A stretch of 19,736 nt of DNA from Laspinema palackyanum D2c (GTDB taxonomy: Bacteria > Cyanobacteriota > Cyanobacteriia > Cyanobacteriales > Laspinemataceae): contig NZ_JAMXFD010000004.1 in assembly GCF_025370875.1 (NCBI RefSeq), positions 260,777 to 280,512 on the forward strand. The letters are read 5' to 3'. Below are positions 8,759 to 19,736 of the stretch, one piece after another (positions within the stretch are counted from its first letter, which is position 1; every line of letters starts with the position of its first letter). The notes beneath the pieces are model-generated. The model saw only the letters and a list, made by a program, of their open reading frames with translations, had not been told where the DNA came from and searched no databases. The translations under genes were made by a program, and so were the position numbers.

Positions 8759-10078
8759 CTAACGTCCTAAGGCAGCATTAGCCAAGTTAACCCCACCCGG
8801 AGTAGCTTCCGGGGGTTGTTGTTCTCCCAGCGCTTTACTGATCTCAACGCCGTTTTGCTCCAAAATCACAATCGGGTCAGCGGAATCTAAATTTTGCACC
8901 TCTTTCACCAGCACCTCGCCTAGGGCAATGCGATCGCCTACCTTCACATAGCGCGAAGTTGCCTCATTAGGAGCCTTAACAATAATTTGCACTTGACCCC
9001 CCGCTCGAATCACCCCAGTCACTTCCGTAGCTTGGGCTAAATCCGTAGAAGGTGGCGGTGGTGGGACCGGAGGTGGGGGTGGGGGAGGAAGCTGCTCTGG
9101 ACCAATTCCCACTGGCAGTTCCGGAAGACCTGGCACCCCTCGCGCCACTAAAGGCGGAAGCGTTGGGGGTTGAGGGGGACCCGCAGGGGCCTGGGCGACT
9201 ACCGGAGGCAGTTGTTCTGGACCAATTCCCACAGGCAGTTCCGGAAGACCTGGCACCCCTCGCGCCACTAAAGGCGGAATGGTGGGGGGTTGAGGGGGAG
9301 CCGGTGGACCAGCAGCCGCTTGTCGTGCGGGGGGTCGCGGTCTGGGAGGTAGTTGTTCTGGGCCAATTCCGAAAGGCAAATCGGGAAGGGAGGGAACTCC
9401 TTGACCCACCAGGTCGGGAATTTGTGGTCCTTGAGGACCGGGCGTTCCGGGTCTGGCTCCCGGGCCCGTTCCATTTCCAGTTCCTCCCCCTGGTCCCGGT
9501 CTGGCTCCCGGGCCCGTTCCATTTCCTCGGCCTGCTCCTGGTCCTGCTCCTGGTCCTGCTCCTGGTCCTGCTCCTGGTCCTGCTCCTGGTCCTGGGAAGG
9601 GTTGAAAGGGTTGAGCTTGGGCCACTGCTTGACCTGGGGGTAATTCTGGACCGATCGCCACCGGCAATTCCGGAAGATCAGGAACCGCACGGCCTGGAAA
9701 TTCCGGAACTCTAGGAGTTGCGGGTGCTGCACCCGGTGCAGGAGTGACCGGCACCGGCTGGACATCAAGTATCCCAAAGGGATTTTCCTGAGCCTGTCGG
9801 GCCCTTTGCTGGTCCAGTTGCCGCACTCGCTCATCTGGACTGGTTGGGGGAATTAAATTCCCAATGGAAGTGGGATCCGGGCGCTGAGGCACCACAGGTT
9901 CTGCAAATTCCGGGGATTCGGGTTGTTCTCCGGCTTCTGGGGACTCCGGTGGAGTCTCCGCTGCTGGGGGAGATGGCTCGACGGGGGCGACGACTTCCGG
10001 AGTCTCCGGTTCACCACCACACGCACTCAAGATGAGGACGAGCATCCCAATTGACACCTTTAATAAAAGTTGACGCAT
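8759..10078 (-). CDS. proline-rich repetitive lipoprotein with C-terminal ~90-aa beta domain (PilP/GspC-like, tentative)
   Basis: lipobox MRQLLLKVSIGMLVLILSAC; acidic Pro-rich N-region; 4x ~40-aa repeat G-x-G-VP-x-LPELPVGIGPEQLPP; (GPGAGP)n; C-terminal RYVKVGDRIALGEVLVKEV. Confidence 0.7.
   Translation of the reverse strand: MRQLLLKVSIGMLVLILSACGGEPETPEVVAPVEPSPPAAETPPESPEAGEQPESPEFAEPVVPQRPDPTSIGNLIPPTSPDERVRQLDQQRARQAQENPFGILDVQPVPVTPAPGAAPATPRVPEFPGRAVPDLPELPVAIGPELPPGQAVAQAQPFQPFPGPGAGPGAGPGAGPGAGPGAGRGNGTGPGARPGPGGGTGNGTGPGARPGTPGPQGPQIPDLVGQGVPSLPDLPFGIGPEQLPPRPRPPARQAAAGPPAPPQPPTIPPLVARGVPGLPELPVGIGPEQLPPVVAQAPAGPPQPPTLPPLVARGVPGLPELPVGIGPEQLPPPPPPPVPPPPPSTDLAQATEVTGVIRAGGQVQIIVKAPNEATSRYVKVGDRIALGEVLVKEVQNLDSADPIVILEQNGVEISKALGEQQPPEATPGGVNLANAALGR
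9088..9302. repeat. two near-identical 120-bp in-frame direct repeats inside the proline-rich gene (diverged copies around 9340-9420 and 9600-9700)
   Basis: CTGGACCAATTCCCAC(T/A)GGCAGTTCCGGAAGACCTGGCACCCCTCGCGCCACTAAAGGCGGAA at 9098 and 9218. Confidence 0.85.
9529..9596. repeat. microsatellite (CCTGCTCCTGGT)x5 encoding (GPGAGP)n; adjacent 48-bp duplication at 9451-9478 and 9499-9526
   Basis: read directly. Confidence 0.85.
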
Positions 10079-10478: not shown

Positions 10479-11096
10479 CTATATTTTAGTAAAAATAGTC
10501 AGCCAGACGGGACCGAGAAGGGAGTAATGTCCCTGGCATTGGAGTCTTGCTTCTCTCCCGAGTTGTTCGCGCCTTTGCCGGGAGTAGAGGTAAATATTGG
10601 CAGGAGAGACTCCCAAAGCATGAGACATATTTTGTCCCAGGGGGGTGAAATCAACTAAGTAGTATTTTCCCCTAGGGGACAAGACACGGTTGACTTCGGA
10701 TAAAACGCGACTGGGATTGGGGTAATGTAAAAAACTAATGGTATTGAAAACGGTGTCAAATTGTTGGTCGGTGAAGGGGAGTTGTTCGGCGTTTCCTTGG
10801 ATGAAAATGAGGCGGGGACGATGGCGATCGCGCTTTTTTTGTCTCGCTTGGTGAATCATCTCGGGGGAAAGGTCAAATCCGGTGCCGCGTAGGGTGGGAA
10901 ATTCCTCGGCAAGGCGATCGAGCAATCGACCCGTTCCGCATCCGAGGTCTAGCACATTGGGAGAGTCGGGCAAGTGCAGATAATCCAGTAATCTTTTATG
11001 CAGGGCTTGATAAAAGATAGTCGTAAACAGGATATCGTAAGTCGATGCCCAACGGTCAAAAAGTTTTTGTTTTTTGATGATTTCCGGGTGAGTCAC
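10479..11096 (-). CDS. class I SAM-dependent methyltransferase
   Basis: motif I VLDLGCGTGRLL; acidic motif II GFDLS; FIQGNAEQLPF; 205 aa. Confidence 0.85.
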   Translation of the reverse strand: MTHPEIIKKQKLFDRWASTYDILFTTIFYQALHKRLLDYLHLPDSPNVLDLGCGTGRLLDRLAEEFPTLRGTGFDLSPEMIHQARQKKRDRHRPRLIFIQGNAEQLPFTDQQFDTVFNTISFLHYPNPSRVLSEVNRVLSPRGKYYLVDFTPLGQNMSHALGVSPANIYLYSRQRREQLGREARLQCQGHYSLLGPVWLTIFTKI

Positions 11097-11169: not shown

Positions 11170-11676
11170 CTAGGGGGTGACGCGGTAATTTTGGGCGATC
11201 GCATAAAAGAGAGAGTAATATTCCCCAAATCGGTCTTTGGGCGATCGGCCTTGCCAAGTATAAATCACATCTCCCGATTCTAGGGTCATCCGCATCACAC
11301 TTTCGTCAGTTCCCACTTCCACCTCTAACAATGCCGGTAATCCCTGTTCCGTGGTGAAGTTAGACTTAGGAACCGTTGCGGTTTCCTCTGCTTCCTCTAA
11401 TCCGGTGAGTTTCAAGGTTCCCCATCCTCTAATTTCTATATTGGGGTAATCGGGAGCATGAAAGGCACGTCCATCCTGATTCGTGGGGGGAGGGAGTGGT
11501 ACCCAATCCGGGGGATACGGAAACTCGAACCCAAAGCGCTGATTTTGATAAGTGTTCCATTGGGTGGGGACGGTGGGATTGGTGGGAGTGCAAGCGGAAA
11601 TTAGGACAGCGATCGCCATCCCCGACGCGATTCGGGGGAACAGTGCTGTGGGAAAAGGATGAGGGAAAGAAGTCAT
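11170..11676 (-). CDS. hypothetical lipoprotein (ORF opens at TTG 11763, overlapping the upstream stop; ATG 11676 gives MTSF...RIASGMAIAVLISAC lipobox; ATG 11619 also possible)
   Basis: LISAC lipobox; Pro/Trp-rich mature N-terminus; directly abuts DUF11 gene. Confidence 0.5.
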   Translation of the reverse strand: MTSFPHPFPTALFPRIASGMAIAVLISACTPTNPTVPTQWNTYQNQRFGFEFPYPPDWVPLPPPTNQDGRAFHAPDYPNIEIRGWGTLKLTGLEEAEETATVPKSNFTTEQGLPALLEVEVGTDESVMRMTLESGDVIYTWQGRSPKDRFGEYYSLFYAIAQNYRVTP

Positions 11677-11759
11677 AAATACACCGGCGATCGGCTGGGA
11701 TAACGGGGAGGGAATGCCTGGACACCGCCCGACGTGACTGTACCCTCCCCAACACTCAA

Positions 11760-14700
11760 TCAATCTATTCTAACCCGGAAGCGAATAAACCCATAGTCAC
11801 CCGCCGCCAGGTTACCAATATCCACAACCACCGCCCCTCTCACATTTGGCAGACGACAGACGGGAGGTGCTGTAATTCCTGAAGGATAAAACCGGCCTCG
11901 ATTACTCTCACTATTCGCACTTCTGAGATAGGCCGTCGGTAAATCCGGGTTTGGAGGATTTAACGCCAATGCAATCCCCACCTCAGCCCCAAACGCTCCT
12001 TCGGTTGGAGTTTGACCATTGAATGTATCCGTCCGAAATGTCTGATAGTTTTGCAAGGGGTCACAGACCCTTGCATTATCTAGAGGTCCACTCCCGGCAG
12101 ACAAAAAATATATTGTATATTCAACTTCATCTCCCGGTTGAATAGTATTGGAATTGGGCAATCCTCGCACAAAGTTAGCGGGCCAATTGGTCAAACTCTC
12201 ACTCTGACCTACAACCGTCCCATTAATCCGAGTAATCCGCTTTAGTAACTCCAGATTGGGAACTGCTACCGGAACAATAACTTCATTATCCTGATTATTG
12301 GTCTGGCTTGGGTCCAACTGATCGGAACCACTCACTTGCGCCACGTTCGTGATTGTTTCGTTAAGCCTGACTATGGCAGCAATTTGTAACGTCGCTGTTT
12401 CTCCATTATCCAGCCTATCCATAGTCCAAATCCCTGTACTATTGTTATAGTTCCCTTGGTTAGGACTGGCTGAAACAAACGTCAAGCCAGGAGGGAGTTG
12501 ATCCGTAATAGAAACATTCGTAGCATTACTCGGGCCATTGTTTTTCACCGAAATGGTATAGGTTATCGTCTCTCCCACCCTAGGGGTAGATTGATCTACA
12601 ATTTTCTGAACCTCTAAATCGGCTTGTTGCTGGGGAATAGTAACACTACTTTGGTTATTTGTAATGTCAGGATCAACTTGATCCGAGGAATTGATAGAGG
12701 CCGTGTTAGTGCTCTCATTGAGAGTATCTACTCGGGCACGAATTGTCAACGTTACTGTGTTCCCAGTATTAATCCGACCGATGGTCCAAATCTTTGTACT
12801 CTCGTTATAAGTCCCCAGGCTTGGCTCCGATGAAATAAACGTTAATCCAGTCGGTAACTGTTCTACAATGGATACATTTGTCGCATTATTAGGACCGTTA
12901 TTAACTACAGAAATTGTATAGGTTACAATGTCTCCTAGGTTGGGATTGGGATTATCTACAATTTTCTGAACCTTTAAATCGGCTTGTTGTTGAGGAATAG
13001 TAACAGTACCTCGGTTATTGCTGTTGTTGGGGTCCGGTTGATCGGATGCTGTAATAGAGGCCGTGTTAATAACTTCATTGACTGTATCTACTCTAGCACT
13101 AACTGTTAACGTTATAGTCGCTCCATTAGCGAGGTTTCCCACAGTCCAGAGACCCGTTGTTCGATTATATGCACCCCCACTATTGTCAGATATATAAGTT
13201 AATCCGGCTGGGAGTTGATCTGTAATTTGGACTCCGGTTGCGTCACTAGGTCCGTTGTTAGTTAGCGTAACCGTATAGGCGATGGTATCTCCTACAGTTG
13301 GATTTAGATTATCTACAGATTTTCTAAGGCTCAAATCCGACTCTTGAGCAATGACTGGGACACTACTAGCTTGGTCATCTTCATTTAAGTTATTATTTCC
13401 GGGAATAGAGTCAGTATCTGTTTCGTTAGTTGCAATGACTTCCGCTGTATTTATTACAGCAAGGCTGGTTGTAACTGTTGCCACAATAGTTAATGTAGCA
13501 CTTCCACCGTTGGAAACTGTACCCACCGTCCATAAGCCGGTCTTGCTATCATAGGTTCCTAGAGTAGGAGTAGAAGACACAAAATTTAAGCCAGCGGGTA
13601 ATTGATCCCTTACTTCTACTCCTGTCGCATTACCAGGTCCACTATTGTTTAAGGTAATCGTGAAGGTAACATTTTGCCCTAAAAGGGGAGTAGCATTATC
13701 AACCGTTTTCGTTAGGGATAAATCTACGTTTTGACCATTGATAACGACACTAGCTTGGTCATCTTCACTGAGGATATTATTATTAGGAGTAGAATCAATA
13801 TCAGGCTGGTCCGATGCACTAACTTCAGCCGTGTTGACGATAGGCTCTGGGATAGGCTCTGGGGTTGTGACTGTTGCAACAATATCTAATGTAGCAACCC
13901 CTTGGTTAGCCACTGGGCCTACAGTCCATATTCCTGTACTGTTATCATAGATTCCTTGGCTAGCAGTAGCAGAGACAAAGGTTAAACCGGCTGGCAATTG
14001 ATCCGAAACCTCCACATTAGTAGCATTATCTGGCCCATCATTCGTTAAGGTTAACCGAAATGTGACATTACTTCCCGGATTTGGAGTCGGGTTATCAACT
14101 GTTTTGCTTAAGCTTAAATCAGCTACTTGGGTTTGGGCAGAAAAAGTTAGTAAGCCCGGTGAATATCCATCGTCCCTAGTGCAGACCCTGACATTTGCAG
14201 AGGTGGCATTATTTCCAAAAATATTTTGAGCATCGTTTATAACCAGATTATCAGAATCAAACCCAAAATTATTGACATAGTTAGGCGTTCTTGTATTTGT
14301 ACTGGGTCCCGTAATAGAACTATTAAAAAAGTTATTGGAAGGATTGGATGCATCTGATAAAGGATTGTTATTCAATTCAAATGTATCACCCTGAAATCGT
14401 TGTGCTCGATCGCCCTCGTATGCAATCATTCCCAATCGGGCTGCAAAATTTCCAGCTAATGGAGTTTGAAATCCTGTCACATTAATCGCTAAACATTGAC
14501 TGTTGCTAACAAATGCAAATCCATCATAAACGATAATTCTACCAAATGGACTATTTGGATCTCGGTAAACGATAACTAGGCCCCATCCTCCATAAGGACC
14601 CGACTGAGAAATCCCGCTACTTGCTTGAATGTTACCAACTGTATAAGCTCCGGCTCCTCCTGCTCTTACGAGGTTTGTTACATTGGCGATGCCTTGATAG

Positions 14701-15359
14701 CGTCTACCTCTTCCGCCAATTCCGCCAATTCCGCCAGGACCATAACTCTCAAAATCAAATTGATCGGCTGTTATAGAGACATACCCTCCTGATGCTGGCG
14801 TTTGTAGCAGCACCCGATTCGCTTGACAACGTTGGTAATCCCCTCCGGAATTAATGGCAGTAATACCTGCATTTTGGCAGCCGGGGGAACGGGTAATCTG
14901 TTCGGGAGGATTTGTTACTGTTGTATGCTGCAAATCTGCACCCCAATATAGGCCCGCCCAGAGGACATCTGTACCCGTTACCTCTGCTGGTAATGCTAAA
15001 GTGGCACTACTTGAATTAAACGTATTAGAATTACCATCTGTATCCACATATCGCATGAAGAAGTCGTTATTATCCTGCGGAGCAGTGGGCCCAGCACCGC
15101 CTGTTCGTGCTGTTGAACAGGCAGCCGCATTAAGACGGCCTGGAGTAGGATCACACTCCATGATCGTATTTCCAATCAGAATCTGGTCACCTCTCTCCAC
15201 AGCCTCAAATCGGGGCGTAAAAGGCCGGTTAATTAATTGGGCTTTAACCGGGGCTGGATATAGAATTGTGCCTAAGAGCGGTAGAAGCCCTAGTATTTTT
15301 TTCAAAAATGGGCTTCGTAAAGTTCGTTGGGAGTTGGAGTCAGAGGGTAAGATGTTCAT
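11760..15359 (-). CDS. giant secreted surface protein with 5-6 tandem DUF11/CARDB-type conserved repeat domains
   Basis: signal peptide MNILPSDSNSQRTLRSPFLKKILGLLPLLGTILYPAPVKAQ; ~125-aa repeats starting ADLSLSKTVDN / VDLSLTKTVDN / SDLSLRKSVDN / ADLKVQKIVDN / ADLEVQKIVDQ, each with LTNxGPxxATxVxVxDQLPAGLTFVS...TGxWTVG. Confidence 0.8.
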   Translation of the reverse strand: MNILPSDSNSQRTLRSPFLKKILGLLPLLGTILYPAPVKAQLINRPFTPRFEAVERGDQILIGNTIMECDPTPGRLNAAACSTARTGGAGPTAPQDNNDFFMRYVDTDGNSNTFNSSSATLALPAEVTGTDVLWAGLYWGADLQHTTVTNPPEQITRSPGCQNAGITAINSGGDYQRCQANRVLLQTPASGGYVSITADQFDFESYGPGGIGGIGGRGRRYQGIANVTNLVRAGGAGAYTVGNIQASSGISQSGPYGGWGLVIVYRDPNSPFGRIIVYDGFAFVSNSQCLAINVTGFQTPLAGNFAARLGMIAYEGDRAQRFQGDTFELNNNPLSDASNPSNNFFNSSITGPSTNTRTPNYVNNFGFDSDNLVINDAQNIFGNNATSANVRVCTRDDGYSPGLLTFSAQTQVADLSLSKTVDNPTPNPGSNVTFRLTLTNDGPDNATNVEVSDQLPAGLTFVSATASQGIYDNSTGIWTVGPVANQGVATLDIVATVTTPEPIPEPIVNTAEVSASDQPDIDSTPNNNILSEDDQASVVINGQNVDLSLTKTVDNATPLLGQNVTFTITLNNSGPGNATGVEVRDQLPAGLNFVSSTPTLGTYDSKTGLWTVGTVSNGGSATLTIVATVTTSLAVINTAEVIATNETDTDSIPGNNNLNEDDQASSVPVIAQESDLSLRKSVDNLNPTVGDTIAYTVTLTNNGPSDATGVQITDQLPAGLTYISDNSGGAYNRTTGLWTVGNLANGATITLTVSARVDTVNEVINTASITASDQPDPNNSNNRGTVTIPQQQADLKVQKIVDNPNPNLGDIVTYTISVVNNGPNNATNVSIVEQLPTGLTFISSEPSLGTYNESTKIWTIGRINTGNTVTLTIRARVDTLNESTNTASINSSDQVDPDITNNQSSVTIPQQQADLEVQKIVDQSTPRVGETITYTISVKNNGPSNATNVSITDQLPPGLTFVSASPNQGNYNNSTGIWTMDRLDNGETATLQIAAIVRLNETITNVAQVSGSDQLDPSQTNNQDNEVIVPVAVPNLELLKRITRINGTVVGQSESLTNWPANFVRGLPNSNTIQPGDEVEYTIYFLSAGSGPLDNARVCDPLQNYQTFRTDTFNGQTPTEGAFGAEVGIALALNPPNPDLPTAYLRSANSESNRGRFYPSGITAPPVCRLPNVRGAVVVDIGNLAAGDYGFIRFRVRID

Positions 15360-15412
15360 GGAGTTTTAACAAGTATCAGAAAATTCCCGGTTGATGACCA
15401 CAGCCAAAAGTT

Positions 15413-18400
15413 TTAGGGATTAGAATTATTGGTGGATTGCGGTGCAGTTCCCTCTGCTGCTGGTGGGGGAATTACCTGTCCGAATCCGGGCCAGAGTTCG
15501 TTTAATTTGACGGTTAATCCTATGTAGGGACCGGAGGCGGACCGATCGCCATTAAAGTCCCGATCGCTGACTTTGCCGAAGACGTATCCTAACCCTAATC
15601 TCAAATCCGGAGTCAAATAATATCCCACCTCTGCTACCACTCCCCATTCATCATAATTCGCATTAGTTTGATGTATCCATCGCCCTTCACCCATCACATC
15701 CCAGCGATACCCAAATCGATAGGTTGCCCTCAACTGATTTAAGGACACTAAACTTGTGCCGACTAAATCATCGGCGAGGTATGAGGTACTTTGCCTTAAT
15801 GCGGTTTTTCCATAAAATTCCCATCGCCAATTGGGGGTATAAATGCTTTCTAAAGCAAAGGTATGGTCTCGCGCTCTTGTGCCCGAATCAAATAATATCG
15901 AATTCGGTATCAAGGCTGGATTCTGGCGATAATCATACCGCAATAAGGCATTAAATTTATCACTATTAGGATTCCGATAGGCTAACCCCATTCGCAAATT
16001 CACCGTATCCCCCATTTCATCAAACAATTGATTTGATGACGATGCCTGTTGATAGCGGGTGAGGACAGACAAGGAGTCCGTAAGTTTACCCGATGCTGCT
16101 GCGGAAATCACTGTATTGTTGCCACTACTGGAAAACCGATGTTCATATCGGGCACTAGCAGCAAAGTCCGGATTTCCGGTATAGTCAAATCCCACACTGT
16201 AACTGTCTCCGCTAAGAATTCCTAATGCAGCAGCACTCTGTCCCGGTGCATAAGGTTGAGCAAATTCACTCCCAGCACCTGTGCGACTAAATAGAGAACC
16301 AAAGACGTGTTCATAGGCGAAATTTACACGAAATCCCGGGAAGACTGTCCACCCATGTTGTAATCCTAGGGCGGCCCCCATTGTCTGTCCGTTAATAAAG
16401 GAATAGCGTCCGGTGACGATGGTATCTTCGGTAACGTTGTAATCCCCATTGAGATTGAGACTGGTGATGGAATTGTCTTCATATTGTCCCCCAGTAAACC
16501 AGACTTGATTTAATTCAAGGGTGACTCCGGGAACTAAGCGCCAATCTAACCCTAAAATGGTGCGATCGGGATAAACCACATCTTCTTCTTTTAAGAGGTT
16601 GAATTCATTTTGCGCCCGAATGTTAATTGTATCGGTAATCGGCATAGAAAAGCGCGATCGCAACTGAGAAGAGGTGGCATCTAAGGGACTGGTTGCCACC
16701 TCATCTTTCCGGTTTCTCCAAACCCAATCTAATCCCAAGTTTGCCCGCCCAATGGTCTGCTGCAATCCAGCAGAGATGGTGGTTAAGGAGTTATTCAGTC
16801 CCATTCCCGGAATGGGTTCTCGTCTGGGGGTTAAAAAATCCTCGATCGCACTAATGGGACGGGGAGAATTACCAAAGTTTTTCTCATGGTCATAGGCAAA
16901 CTGTAACAGGGTCGTATTCGTTAACCGACTGTTTAATAATGCCCCATACCGTGTTTGTCCTGGCACAAAACTCACCGTGGCATCGTTGGCAAATCCTTCA
17001 TCCGTATTGCGATAATACAAGCGACTAGAAAAAGGTCCGCCAATGGCATTTAATTCAAATCGGTACGCCTCCCCTGTGACGAGTCCTAAAAGTTCAGAAT
17101 CGTTGGTGGAATGGGCGTATTCCGCAATAAATTGGCCGCTGACTGGGGTTCTGAAATTCGGCACTTCTTCTTCTCGATAATCAGTCACCTCTTGGGGTGC
17201 TTCTTTACCAAAGGTGAGCATGAAATCGGCCCCATAAAGTTCAAAATCTCGGATGCCTTGATTTTGGCGCAGGTAGGTGGCCCCCAACCATCCGGGGGTG
17301 TTGAAATCGCGGGAAAAATTATAGCGAACTCGTCCCCCCCAGAGGTTAGTATTGCCGTCCAAGTCTTCATGTTGATAGGTGGCAACGATGCGTCTGGCAA
17401 CGACGGTTTCTACCCCATTAACGGTTACCACATCGGTTCGCAGGAGGGGACGACGAAACAAGATGGACCCGCGATCATAGTCGATTTCATAATCTGACCC
17501 TCGGTTGAGTTGTTGTCGTCGGACAATATTTCCCGGACGTCCGAGTTCTTCCAGTTCTAAAAATAAATTTTCACTGCCGGGGATGACTAATCGGTGAGAG
17601 AGGAAGTAAAATCCACTGGTCCCGTCGGGAGCGATCGCATCCCGTTGGAATCCTTGAACATCGTTGGCAAATAAGGCGCTGACTTGCCATTGTCCCCAGT
17701 TATAATTTCCTTTAAATCCCTGTAATGCGCGGGTTAAAGCAGTGAACTGTTGGGACTCGTTGGCAAATTCTGAAGTGCCATAATTTCCCCACATGAAGTA
17801 ATCTAATCCCGCATTTTCTTCCGATGAGGACCGTTCAAATCTCAGGAACACACTATCACTAGAAGGTGCAGTTGCCTGAACCGTTGAAGCATCTCCATAC
17901 AGGGGATAATTTTGCTCACTAAATTGGGTATCTGAAAATAACCGGCGGCGGTTGCCACTACAATCACAATTGAGCGATCGCTCGCTATTATAGGCCCCCG
18001 TAAATAACCATCCGCCTAACTCCCCAGTAGCAAACGCTGCACCTGTAACATCTAATTTAAACTCGTTATTTTCATCCGGGGGTAAAAAGTCCCGCAACCG
18101 TCCCCAATAGTCCAATCCTCGCCGTCCAAATCGCAGGTTAATTCCCCCAGTAACTAAACTCGGACGGAGGTAAGTATCAAACTGGATCTGAGTAAATGCT
18201 TCTAGCGATCGCCCTGCAATGGTTTCTGTATCTGTTGCGGCACGAATTCTCACGGTCTGAGCATCTAACGGCGACTGCAACTGTGCCGTAAATTCCCCAG
18301 CAATTACGGGTACTTGAAATCCAGCCTGATCGAGATTCAGGTCTTCCCCCATCAAGGTTCCCGCACTGGCACTGAGGGTAATCTCTGTGTCGCGTTCGAC

Positions 18401-19736
18401 TAATTTCCCATTTTCATCTAATAACCGTCCCTGAATATTAACAATGGACCGTCCATCGGCAGGCACTCTTTTTTCAACGGTTTCTACGGCAATTTCTGCG
18501 GCTCCTCCTGAGACAAATACGGTGACCAAAGATCCATTAACCGTTGCTCCAACCACGCGGATGGCGATCGCATTTTCCCCAGATTGTAAGGGAATCCCCA
18601 CCCAGGTTTGCGTCACCATCCCGGTATTACTATCCCGTTCCGTTTGTCCGACGGCATCGGAAGATACCAGATTCCCGTTTACCAGGAGTTCGATTTCCGT
18701 CCCTTCCGGAAATTGCACAATAATCTGGGTTGCTGGAACCCCCAACATTTCCCCCGGGGTTGGCGACAGGATCCGGATGCCACTCTCCGATTGTGCGATC
18801 GCTTCCGTGGCAGTTTCTAAATTTTCCCCAGTCCCTCTTGACCCTGGATTGGCTTCTGCTATAATGGGGGAAAGGGGGTTCTCTGTCAAAAATTGGTAAT
18901 TTTGCGAAGTTTCTCCCACACCCAAATTTATCTCTAAATCCAAAGACTCCCGACTACTAACTGTCGCTACGTTTGTAAGTCGGTTAACAATATCTGTAAT
19001 CCTTGTAAATTCAGTATTTTCAAGCCATATCGCTGATTTCATCGGATAGACATCGGGCAAATTTTCTGTTGCTGCAAATGTGGGTACAGATAAGGGAGCA
19101 ATCTGGAGTAAATTGTGGTCTCCAACTGCTACATTTGTCACAATATTTGTTGTGACATCGCTCCTCGCACTATTAACGCAAAAACCCCCCATTTTGCACA
19201 AATTTTCAGGCGTATTAAGTAAAAAAGCTACATCTGTTACTCTTAGTGTTGCTACAGAATTTAGGTATTTTTTGCCCGAAAATTCTGATATATTGGACGA
19301 TTCCTGGAAATCCCAAAAATTTCTTTGTGCTTCCAACAACCCGAGATTTTGGATGATTTCTGGGGACAACAACATCCCAGTGTCACTGGAGGCGATCGGG
19401 AAAATTGGCCCTAATTCAGGATCCGTTGTCTGAATTGGGGACAACTTTTCATCGGACAGAGTAAATTGCAGATGCTCTGTTGACAATAATCTGTTATGGG
19501 GTGTTTCCCCTGAGATATTGCTGGAATTAGCGGCATCGGGGACTGTTGCAGGGAAAGCATTCCCAGAAGTTGTCTCAATTTCCGATAACTTTTTATCGGA
19601 ACCTGTAACAAATTGCAGATGCTCTGTTGACAATAATCTGTTATCGGGTGTTTCCCCTAAGATATTGCTGGAATTAGCGGCATCGGGGACTGTTGCAGGG
19701 AAAGCATTCCCAGAAGTTGTCTCAATTTCCGATAAC
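15413..19736 (-). CDS. very large outer-membrane beta-barrel protein with N-terminal 49-aa tandem repeats and Big-1-like Ig domain(s); 5' partial (frame open to window edge; TTG at 19633 is only the first in-window start)
   Basis: C-terminal ~900 aa with alternating aromatic/hydrophobic strand pattern (YRFGYRWDV, GVVAEVGYYL, LGLGYVFGKV, YIGLTVKLNELW); Big-1-like VPADGRSIVNIQGRLLDENGKLV...ITLSASAGTL; no stop between 19634 and window end. Confidence 0.7.
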   Translation of the reverse strand, partial: LSEIETTSGNAFPATVPDAANSSNILGETPDNRLLSTEHLQFVTGSDKKLSEIETTSGNAFPATVPDAANSSNISGETPHNRLLSTEHLQFTLSDEKLSPIQTTDPELGPIFPIASSDTGMLLSPEIIQNLGLLEAQRNFWDFQESSNISEFSGKKYLNSVATLRVTDVAFLLNTPENLCKMGGFCVNSARSDVTTNIVTNVAVGDHNLLQIAPLSVPTFAATENLPDVYPMKSAIWLENTEFTRITDIVNRLTNVATVSSRESLDLEINLGVGETSQNYQFLTENPLSPIIAEANPGSRGTGENLETATEAIAQSESGIRILSPTPGEMLGVPATQIIVQFPEGTEIELLVNGNLVSSDAVGQTERDSNTGMVTQTWVGIPLQSGENAIAIRVVGATVNGSLVTVFVSGGAAEIAVETVEKRVPADGRSIVNIQGRLLDENGKLVERDTEITLSASAGTLMGEDLNLDQAGFQVPVIAGEFTAQLQSPLDAQTVRIRAATDTETIAGRSLEAFTQIQFDTYLRPSLVTGGINLRFGRRGLDYWGRLRDFLPPDENNEFKLDVTGAAFATGELGGWLFTGAYNSERSLNCDCSGNRRRLFSDTQFSEQNYPLYGDASTVQATAPSSDSVFLRFERSSSEENAGLDYFMWGNYGTSEFANESQQFTALTRALQGFKGNYNWGQWQVSALFANDVQGFQRDAIAPDGTSGFYFLSHRLVIPGSENLFLELEELGRPGNIVRRQQLNRGSDYEIDYDRGSILFRRPLLRTDVVTVNGVETVVARRIVATYQHEDLDGNTNLWGGRVRYNFSRDFNTPGWLGATYLRQNQGIRDFELYGADFMLTFGKEAPQEVTDYREEEVPNFRTPVSGQFIAEYAHSTNDSELLGLVTGEAYRFELNAIGGPFSSRLYYRNTDEGFANDATVSFVPGQTRYGALLNSRLTNTTLLQFAYDHEKNFGNSPRPISAIEDFLTPRREPIPGMGLNNSLTTISAGLQQTIGRANLGLDWVWRNRKDEVATSPLDATSSQLRSRFSMPITDTINIRAQNEFNLLKEEDVVYPDRTILGLDWRLVPGVTLELNQVWFTGGQYEDNSITSLNLNGDYNVTEDTIVTGRYSFINGQTMGAALGLQHGWTVFPGFRVNFAYEHVFGSLFSRTGAGSEFAQPYAPGQSAAALGILSGDSYSVGFDYTGNPDFAASARYEHRFSSSGNNTVISAAASGKLTDSLSVLTRYQQASSSNQLFDEMGDTVNLRMGLAYRNPNSDKFNALLRYDYRQNPALIPNSILFDSGTRARDHTFALESIYTPNWRWEFYGKTALRQSTSYLADDLVGTSLVSLNQLRATYRFGYRWDVMGEGRWIHQTNANYDEWGVVAEVGYYLTPDLRLGLGYVFGKVSDRDFNGDRSASGPYIGLTVKLNELWPGFGQVIPPPAAEGTAPQSTNNSNP
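19463..19736. repeat. 147-bp (49-aa) in-frame tandem repeat at the 5' end of the OMP gene; about 1.9 copies visible, truncated by the window edge; degenerate copy 19411-19462
   Basis: AAATTGCAGATGCTCTGTTGACAATAATCTGTTAT at 19463 and 19610; ...TTGTCTCAATTTCCGATAAC at 19570 and 19716. Confidence 0.85.

Follow-up and report, generated by a model that had tools for sequence, protein, structure and literature searches.

How do diderm bacteria outside Bacteroidota place giant DUF11/CLIPPER adhesins on their surface? To our knowledge, this is not known. For proteins of several thousand residues with immunoglobulin (Ig)-like stalk domains, which are surface adhesins, passage across the outer membrane is required. 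The question is raised by a stretch of 19,736 nt of Laspinema palackyanum D2c (NZ_JAMXFD010000004.1, positions 260,777-280,512 of the forward strand; the whole stretch is referred to as the window), in which four collinear open reading frames (ORFs) on the minus strand encode a giant outer membrane protein (OMP), a 1199-amino acid (aa) DUF11 protein (D), a lipoprotein and a methyltransferase. The distal half of an operon conserved in cyanobacteria, A-B-C-OMP-D, lies within the window. The OMP and the DUF11 protein very likely form a functional unit, as judged from co-conservation in both directions, overlapping stop and start codons, synteny across phyla and a gene fusion. Within this unit, the OMP is probably a dedicated export or anchor barrel for isopeptide-type fibrillar adhesins. 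The following parts of the two genes are referred to below (window coordinates):

15413..19736, minus strand: OMP gene, 5' end cut by the window edge, signal peptide and first repeats outside; frame open to 19735
19463..19736, minus strand: 147-bp tandem repeat in the N-terminal part of the OMP, which is variable, corresponding to a 49-aa unit (1.9 copies with 98% matches by Tandem Repeats Finder)
18182..18781, minus strand: two Ig-like domains (invasin D3 / Big_1 type) ahead of the OMP barrel
15500..18157, minus strand: predicted transmembrane beta-barrel region of the OMP, ~38-40 strands
17420..17653, minus strand: short-stranded insert in the OMP barrel, a plug-like candidate (model residues 377-454)
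15360..15412, minus strand: spacer of 53 bp between OMP stop and D start, without terminator-like hairpin
11760..15359, minus strand: gene D, Sec-exported fibrillar-adhesin-like protein of 1199 aa (ATG 15359, TGA 11760-11762)
14124..15239, minus strand: N-terminal domain of D, aa ~41-412, without family match
12270..14123, minus strand: five DUF11/CLIPPER repeats of D, aa 413-1030, with isopeptide-type triad (Pfam DUF11, repeat alignment)
11763..12269, minus strand: C-terminal domain (CTD) of D, a strictly C-terminal beta-sandwich of ~170 aa (conservation and AlphaFold2 model)

The OMP family was detected in at least 592 cyanobacterial genome stretches by a genome scan with an OMP alignment, and 80 of these were kept as loci for neighbourhood analysis. 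The gene order A-B-C-OMP was present in all loci with enough upstream DNA (70/70) and extends upstream of the window. Protein A (about 850 aa) carries DUF7925, a predicted CnaA-like isopeptide domain, B (about 190 aa) a single DUF11-like domain, and C (500-1150 aa) DUF11 and SdrD_B domains; the stop codon of C overlaps the OMP start. Scans of A, B and C with Pfam and NCBIfam gave DUF7925, DUF11 and SdrD_B only, and no PapD-like chaperone domain. A Picosynechococcus plasmid carries the complete order A-B-C-OMP-D. Downstream of the OMP, a gene encoding the CTD was found on the same strand in 55 of the 80 loci, in one to three copies, and it was the immediate OMP neighbour in 41 of the 55. The downstream DNA was shorter than 4.4 kb in 14 of the 25 CTD-negative loci, which gives a testable rate of 55/66. 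For the reciprocal test, 79 metagenome loci were seeded with the CTD: the OMP was located upstream in 37, another 37 were too short, and five had none within 10 kb, i.e., the OMP was upstream in 37 of 42 testable loci.

An earlier note, made from the letters of the window alone, had proposed the OMP and the DUF11 protein as cognate partners whose neighbourhood should be conserved. This pairing holds in both directions in cyanobacteria and, as described below, by adjacency in Alphaproteobacteria and a fusion in Acinetobacter. The conserved element, however, is the terminal CTD of ~170 aa; the DUF11 repeats and the N-terminal domain of D, for which the 80 loci were searched with the window proteins, are not conserved beside the OMP. 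Across cyanobacteria, no part of D other than the CTD is conserved downstream of the OMP. The note had also drawn the module as a triad of OMP, DUF11 protein and lipoprotein; this outline has to be redrawn, since the operon continues upstream as A-B-C-OMP.

Outside the cyanobacteria, a tblastn search of plasmids with the OMP barrel gave homologues in Alpha- and Gamma-proteobacteria, and nine annotated loci were examined. The homologues of Roseovarius (hhalign probability 99.6%, E 7e-25, 789 columns) and Acinetobacter (probability 100%, E 3e-50, 990 columns) both have the conserved insert motif of the barrel within the aligned region. In seven of the nine loci (Roseovarius, S. meliloti, Pelagibacterium, Sulfitobacter, Devosia, Nitratireductor and Loktanella) the nearest large upstream gene encodes a DUF11, SdrD_B or unnamed protein of 1859-6076 aa. 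This giant gene directly adjoins the OMP homologue in six of the seven, often with stop/start overlap; in Devosia, an ORF of 174 nt lies between them. No type I secretion gene is listed next to any of the seven or around the two-gene modules, which is not conclusive as the gene tables of PLSDB are incomplete. In Acinetobacter haemolyticus p4, a C-like module and a complete OMP homologue are joined in one protein of 2008 aa, with the OMP part at residues 951-1996. The C-like part contains CarboxypepD_reg, DUF11 and SdrD_B domains and is matched by the profile of cyanobacterial C with E 1e-29. The fusion gene is flanked by small DUF11 genes, an OmpA gene and another DUF11 protein. A C-terminal SdrD_B module is common to cyanobacterial C and the proteobacterial giants, and Sec signal peptides were seen in the giant protein of Roseovarius, in the OMPs and in the fusion protein of Acinetobacter. 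In the ninth locus, from Paracoccus, the upstream gene is broken by insertion sequence (IS) elements.

Some further observations were made at these plasmid loci. The Acinetobacter locus (L165, 3111-15476) has an order like that of the cyanobacterial operon, namely small DUF11/NEW3 genes, the C-OMP fusion, an OmpA-family gene and a DUF11 protein of 978 aa. On the Paracoccus alcaliphilus plasmid (L171, 1019-3993), IS110 and IS5 elements occupy the position of the giant DUF11 gene, and a remaining ORF of 203 aa overlaps the OMP start. Directly after the OMP homologue on the Roseovarius plasmid (L163, 11417-12112) a signal-peptide protein of 231 aa with the motif '…AIGRYQFIPSTL…' is encoded; it might conceivably be a cell-wall hydrolase that allows assembly through peptidoglycan, an idea that no family search supports.

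Protein D has a signal peptide visible in its sequence. Pfam DUF11 matches it with E 1.9e-181 over five stretches and TIGR01451 finds six, in agreement with the earlier description of a 1199-aa signal-peptide protein with five to six DUF11 repeats. The positions of the isopeptide triad were taken from the CLIPPER survey (PMC12617251), and Lys/Asp(Glu)/Asn occupy them in the five repeats according to the repeat alignment. With its signal peptide, head, tandem DUF11 stalk with Lys/Asp/Asn triad and C-terminal anchoring end, D would be classed with the DUF11/CLIPPER fibrillar adhesins of that survey. The N-terminal domain gave no family match and no sequence relatives in the PDB; it is common only to one locus (L001), with 67% identity.

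Comparison of the window with the DNA of Laspinema and Oscillatoria acuminata relatives delimits the exchangeable part of D. Identity is 84-89% through the OMP gene to about 15445-15465, no DNA homology is detectable from there to 12261, and at 12261, the start of the CTD, homology of 82-94% restarts and continues through the lipoprotein and methyltransferase genes. The loss and return of homology mark the head and stalk of D as a replaceable cassette, bounded by the 3' end of the OMP gene and the CTD. Cargo proteins at the position of D have lengths of 829, 1028, 1158, 1193, 1199 and about 1400 aa and differ in their domains as well; only L001 has the cargo type of the window, with fewer repeats. 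Apart from this, proteins with a right-handed beta-helix (NosD/Beta_helix) are encoded in some Nostocales and Oscillatoria loci (L012, 13347-14924; L008, 13587-15581), where they lie between OMP and CTD gene or replace the latter. They have the conserved C-terminal motif HP.YGTSEPA. In one metagenome-assembled genome (L005, 13135-16934), the cargo gene between OMP and CTD is broken up into three ORFs; it may be a pseudogene, unless the assembly is in error.

The CTD has the signature LxLVKRITxIN…W…PGDExEYTIYFLSxG…CD…C…N.NGAVVV…SYGFIRFRxKVK (-COOH end) with two invariant cysteines. Its K/D/N pattern suggests an isopeptide-type relative of DUF11, and TIGR01451 touches the CTD. The small protein B is a distant relative (hhalign 80%, E 1e-5). 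A relationship to the C-termini of A or C was considered and rejected (hhalign 2.6% and 29%). An exhaustive profile search of 1.84 billion representatives, the counts of which include generic DUF11-repeat proteins, gave 6252 matches at E 1e-3, 2610 at 1e-10 and 1053 at 1e-30; a word-indexed search, which had found 14 proteins, was superseded by this search and by scans at DNA level. Generic DUF11-repeat proteins account for 36 of the top 150 matches and 114 are full-length; 102 of these 114 extend exactly to the C-terminal residue of their host protein and 113 to within five residues of it. The 114 host proteins are between 206 and 2090 aa long, and the N-terminal parts of CTD proteins vary (DUF11, SdrD_B, GEVED, LTD or beta-helix domains). 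All named CTD proteins are cyanobacterial; their annotations read DUF11, GEVED, lamin-tail or 'isopeptide-forming fimbrial' protein. AlphaFold2 models the CTD as a beta-sandwich of eight strands (predicted local distance difference test, pLDDT, 80; predicted template modelling score, pTM, 0.80), for which no close solved relative was found. In its placement, the CTD behaves like a terminal tag.

The stop codon of the OMP gene occupies 15413-15415 and the frame is still open at 19735, so the protein exceeds 1440 aa. Laspinema homologues with 90-97% identity have 1449-1561 aa and start with the signal peptide MHFQSKFSHLSFNGSLVLPVAAFLFPLPGFAQ. Offset blastn matches in Laspinema relatives suggest that the copy number of the 147-bp repeat varies between strains; a variable repeat number would mean a second variable region in the system. 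In the window OMP, Pfam gave only a sub-threshold DUF2490 match and NCBIfam none. Over 32 family members, Pfam matched Invasin_D3 in 25, a GH2 Ig domain in 20, DUF2490 in 19 (weakly), Big_1 in 12 and Porin_4 in five. Matches of the OMP profile to PDB sequences were confined to the Ig domains of GH2 enzymes. No Pfam or NCBIfam model of ushers, TonB-dependent receptors (Plug, TonB_dep_Rec), LptD/OstA, Omp85/TpsB, autotransporters, the intimin barrel or SprA matched the OMP. For Usher PF00577 this applies to the window OMP and to the 32 family members at E<=0.01; the SprA/Sov translocon and Por_Secre_tail models gave no match either. The POTRA and Bac_surface_Ag models gave no match, the sole trace being Toc75 POTRA with E 0.16 over a 108-aa segment. 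Hundreds of NCBI records name homologues 'TonB-dependent receptor', a name that is unsupported as far as family models can tell. By the same measure, the system falls outside the type V, type IX, usher, TonB-receptor, Omp85 and LptD families.

The last 1122 residues of the OMP were modelled with AlphaFold2 from a 32-sequence alignment (pLDDT 73.6, pTM 0.64). The predicted structure has two Ig-like domains followed by ~38-40 long strands between residues 209 and 1094. The insert at residues 377-454 of the modelled fragment has short strands and holds the most conserved motif of the family, GFQRD..PDGTSG.YFLS.R...GSE....E.....G......L.RG.DYEIDYDRG..LF..P., which is kept in 32/32 cyanobacterial members; in the model, the insert is a candidate plug-like element. 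In Foldseek searches, the largest known barrels ranked first, with TM-scores of 0.28 or lower; SlpA, MtrB and LptD were the top barrel matches. The paired values of the fold comparison were 396 and 12.2 for SlpA, 469 and 11.2 for SprA, 364 and 10.8 for LptD and 268-329 and ~11 for ushers; for TonB-dependent transporters, only the latter value is listed (~11). In Pseudanabaena homologues an OmpA peptidoglycan-binding domain is fused directly after the barrel, which would place the C-terminus of the barrel in the periplasm.

Several readings of the earlier note can be judged from these results. All genes and spacings that it had described are present in the window, without terminator-like hairpins between them. 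It had also described an OMP of more than 1400 aa with Big-1-type Ig domains and no POTRA-like segment; the extent of the frame, the Ig-like domains at 18182-18781 and the Pfam and NCBIfam scans agree with this. The large barrel that it had described is also predicted by the model, with a plug-like candidate in the form of the insert. The scans place the OMP in none of the known families that it named (LptD, TonB-dependent receptor). It had preferred a barrel of usher/LptD scale; a relationship to ushers or LptD found no sequence support, and the fold support is weak and non-specific.

In the literature, DUF7925, the domain of gene A, was defined in the CLIPPER survey from a protein of Nostoc PCC 7120 (Protein Sci 2025, PMC12617251). 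The anchors given there are Por_secre_tail, CHU_C, LPXTG and OmpA-like; neither the CTD nor a partner outer-membrane barrel is mentioned. For D. radiodurans, three predicted 38-stranded barrels with N-terminal invasin-D3 domains are listed as table entries without function or partners (PNAS 2022, PMC9388160, SI Table S3); these have the same stated architecture and strand number as the OMP, compared by description only. Full-text searches of the literature gave no account of the OMP, the CTD or the operon, the sole traces being the Deinococcus table line and the CLIPPER survey. In the earlier note, the arrangement was not recognised as any named secretion system, and known family models did not match either.

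Type V secretion (Va, Vb, Ve) resembles the present system in that a Sec-exported adhesin and a dedicated barrel occur side by side or, as in Acinetobacter, fused with the passenger at the N-terminus, in that no ATPase or inner-membrane component is encoded near the OMP, and in that invasin/Big_1-type Ig-like domains are attached to the barrel. It differs in that homology to the OMP was not detected, in strand number (12 or 16 as opposed to a predicted ~38), in its POTRA domains and in having neither additional conserved partners (A, B) nor a separate cargo that carries a CTD. In intimin and invasin (Ve), moreover, the order is reversed, whereas the Ig domains of the OMP precede a barrel of about 900 aa. 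Type IX secretion likewise uses a very large single-chain barrel (SprA, 36 strands) and diverse cargo with a strictly C-terminal beta-sandwich. However, neither Por_Secre_tail nor SprA gave a match, the CTD is about 170-200 aa and of DUF11 type, PorK/L/M/N-like genes are absent from the OMP operon, and the cargo genes are mostly adjacent to the barrel gene instead of scattered round the genome; type IX belongs to Bacteroidota, the present system to Cyanobacteria and Proteobacteria. We regard the OMP-adhesin system as categorically new in kind, with a function that we infer.

To the observed gene order, domain content, conservation, fusion, cassette boundaries and signal peptides, the following model adds an outer-membrane location of the OMP, a role in translocation or anchoring and a topology, all of which we infer. 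Surface proteins of DUF11 type would have in the OMP barrel a dedicated conduit and/or docking site in the outer membrane. As giant adhesins must cross the outer membrane and the OMP is the sole partner gene in the minimal modules, this is the most economical reading. The adhesins would attach by their C-terminal end, D by its CTD and both C and the giants of Proteobacteria by their SdrD_B module, and the head would project outward. A cell-proximal C-terminal end would agree with the order of head, stalk and CTD in D and with the arrangement of the Acinetobacter fusion from N- to C-terminus. D is made up of an N-terminal head, which varies, a stalk with five CLIPPER/DUF11 domains of isopeptide type, and the CTD; exchange of head and stalk between strains as a cassette, with the CTD kept, would create surface diversity. 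The logic would be akin to two-partner or autotransporter secretion, with an unrelated and far larger barrel. Speculatively, folding of the Ig-like domains outside the cell, possibly with isopeptide formation, could drive export.

A number of points weigh against this reading. No energy source is evident, and A and B are given no role. In the proteobacterial loci, the search for the specific CTD was negative. Eleven OMP loci with ample downstream DNA have no CTD gene, and five of 42 CTD genes have no OMP within 10 kb upstream; D is therefore an optional add-on and no core component. The CTD is itself a divergent DUF11-type domain and might be the last stalk domain instead of a signal. Membrane insertion, barrel closure and strand number of the OMP rest on one AlphaFold2 model of moderate confidence.

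Ushers suggest another function for the same parts, in which the OMP would polymerise Ig-fold subunits of small size, for instance B (~190 aa), to form a pilus, with A and D as its tip adhesins and C as adaptor or chaperone. Chaperone-usher systems (FimD/PapC) share with the OMP system a large barrel, extra Ig-like domains, an insert early in the barrel and Ig-fold surface proteins in the operon; in accordance with such a pilus, the Ig-like domains are located at the N-terminus of the OMP, several subunit-like genes lie within one operon, and B is a stand-alone relative of the CTD. Yet PF00577 matches none of the 32 members, no PapD-like chaperone domain is found in A, B or C, and the barrel is predicted to have ~38 strands instead of 24. 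Its partners are not strand-deficient pilins but giant monomeric adhesins or else complete Ig domains of the isopeptide type, and the alphaproteobacterial modules consist of giant adhesin and OMP alone, which makes fibre assembly unlikely. We consider it similarly improbable that a giant barrel with bound DUF11 proteins serves to tether or pattern a surface layer or the outer membrane, in the manner of Deinococcus SlpA or of protein-in-barrel assemblies of the MtrAB/LptDE type. The top fold matches SlpA, MtrB and LptD would fit such a structural envelope complex, as would the OmpA peptidoglycan-binding domain fused after the barrel in Pseudanabaena or encoded alongside in Acinetobacter and the three D. 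radiodurans barrels (PMC9388160 SI). Partners of 3000-6000 aa with tens of Ig domains, however, are far too long for the periplasm and resemble surface adhesins, and strain-specific exchange of the D cassette fits an exposed, diversifying protein. Anchoring is part of both this complex and an export or anchor barrel, and the two are partly compatible. That the OMP is a TonB-dependent receptor or porin for nutrient uptake, with incidental DUF11 adjacency, is barely credible: the NCBI name and the weak Porin_4 and DUF2490 matches speak for it, but Plug and TonB_dep_Rec do not match in Pfam and nothing matches in NCBIfam, TonB-dependent receptors have 22 strands as opposed to a predicted ~38, and DUF11 synteny across phyla, start/stop overlap and fusion argue against coincidence.

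Also very improbable is the triad of the earlier note, in which OMP, DUF11 protein, lipoprotein and possibly the methyltransferase make up one module and the lipoprotein is an accessory. The two genes concerned are:

11170..11676, minus strand: lipoprotein of 168 aa (lipobox), a neighbour rather than a system component
10479..11096, minus strand: class I S-adenosylmethionine (SAM) methyltransferase of 205 aa (Pfam Methyltransf_25/11), a neighbour rather than a system component

The tight spacing on one strand, with no minus-strand terminator-like hairpin in any of the three gaps between the four ORFs, and the synteny retained in Laspinema and O. acuminata are in favour of the triad. As noted earlier, a TTG at 11763 overlaps the TGA of D (TTGA). 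ATG 11676, which leaves a gap of 83 bp, is more likely the start, since it is used in the relatives and gives a textbook lipoprotein signal (…LISAC). The protein read from there, MTSFPHPFPTALFPRIASGMAIAVLISAC, has the lipobox ISAC with an invariant Cys, as is typical of lipoproteins, and no sequence relatives in the PDB. The methyltransferase follows after 73 bp, as described before, and is assigned to class I by Pfam Methyltransf_25/11 (E 2e-25), without an equivalog-level NCBIfam match. Both genes adjoin the OMP only in four close relatives (Laspinema / Oscillatoria acuminata group) and not in Phormidium CCY1219, any Nostocales or any other locus examined. A Nostoc homologue of the lipoprotein is encoded in an unrelated neighbourhood beside Rce1-like and AAA genes, and the lipoprotein stays about 90% identical whichever cargo precedes it. 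A function as accessory or immunity protein was rejected on these grounds of neighbourhood and conservation; lipoprotein and methyltransferase are lineage-specific neighbours and not components of the system.

The other genes of the window, downstream of these, are housekeeping genes (HflX, glutaredoxin, glutathione synthetase and a GFO/IDH/MocA oxidoreductase), which also argues against the triad, and a scan of the window with Rfam gave no RNA family. A putative lipoprotein of 439 aa (MRQLLLKVSIGMLVLILSAC…) with a GC-rich (0.63), Pro/Glu-rich stretch and no Pfam match is encoded at 8759-10078 on the minus strand; its synteny is kept in Laspinema and O. acuminata. In O. acuminata PCC 6304 (L162, 18492-20249), the glutaredoxin gene is followed by a reverse transcriptase of group II intron type (RVT_1/GIIM/HNH). 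The syntenic spot of the window is without it, and the other ORFs there match HflX and glutathione metabolism.

With the alternatives weighed, the adhesin and OMP module offers a concrete two-gene answer to the question of how giant DUF11/CLIPPER proteins are displayed, and makes it testable. The module is widespread: it occurs on many plasmids of Proteobacteria and in at least 592 genome stretches of cyanobacteria. In its broadest form, the proposal is an unnamed outer-membrane pathway for export and anchoring in Cyanobacteria, Proteobacteria and possibly Deinococcota, in which a single-chain barrel of ~38 strands, larger than any solved, acts as a giant autotransporter or two-partner translocon for isopeptide-stabilised fibrillar adhesins of CLIPPER/DUF11 and SdrD_B type, and in which, in cyanobacteria, a portable C-terminal domain of ~170 aa targets polymorphic, strain-specific cassettes; for this whole we would claim slightly less than an even chance. 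If true, it would be a new secretion or anchoring system with the largest single-chain barrel. Cassette exchange bounded by the CTD would explain strain differences in adhesion, aggregation and phage or grazer recognition in mat-forming cyanobacteria, and the CTD could serve as a surface-display or secretion tag in cyanobacterial strains.

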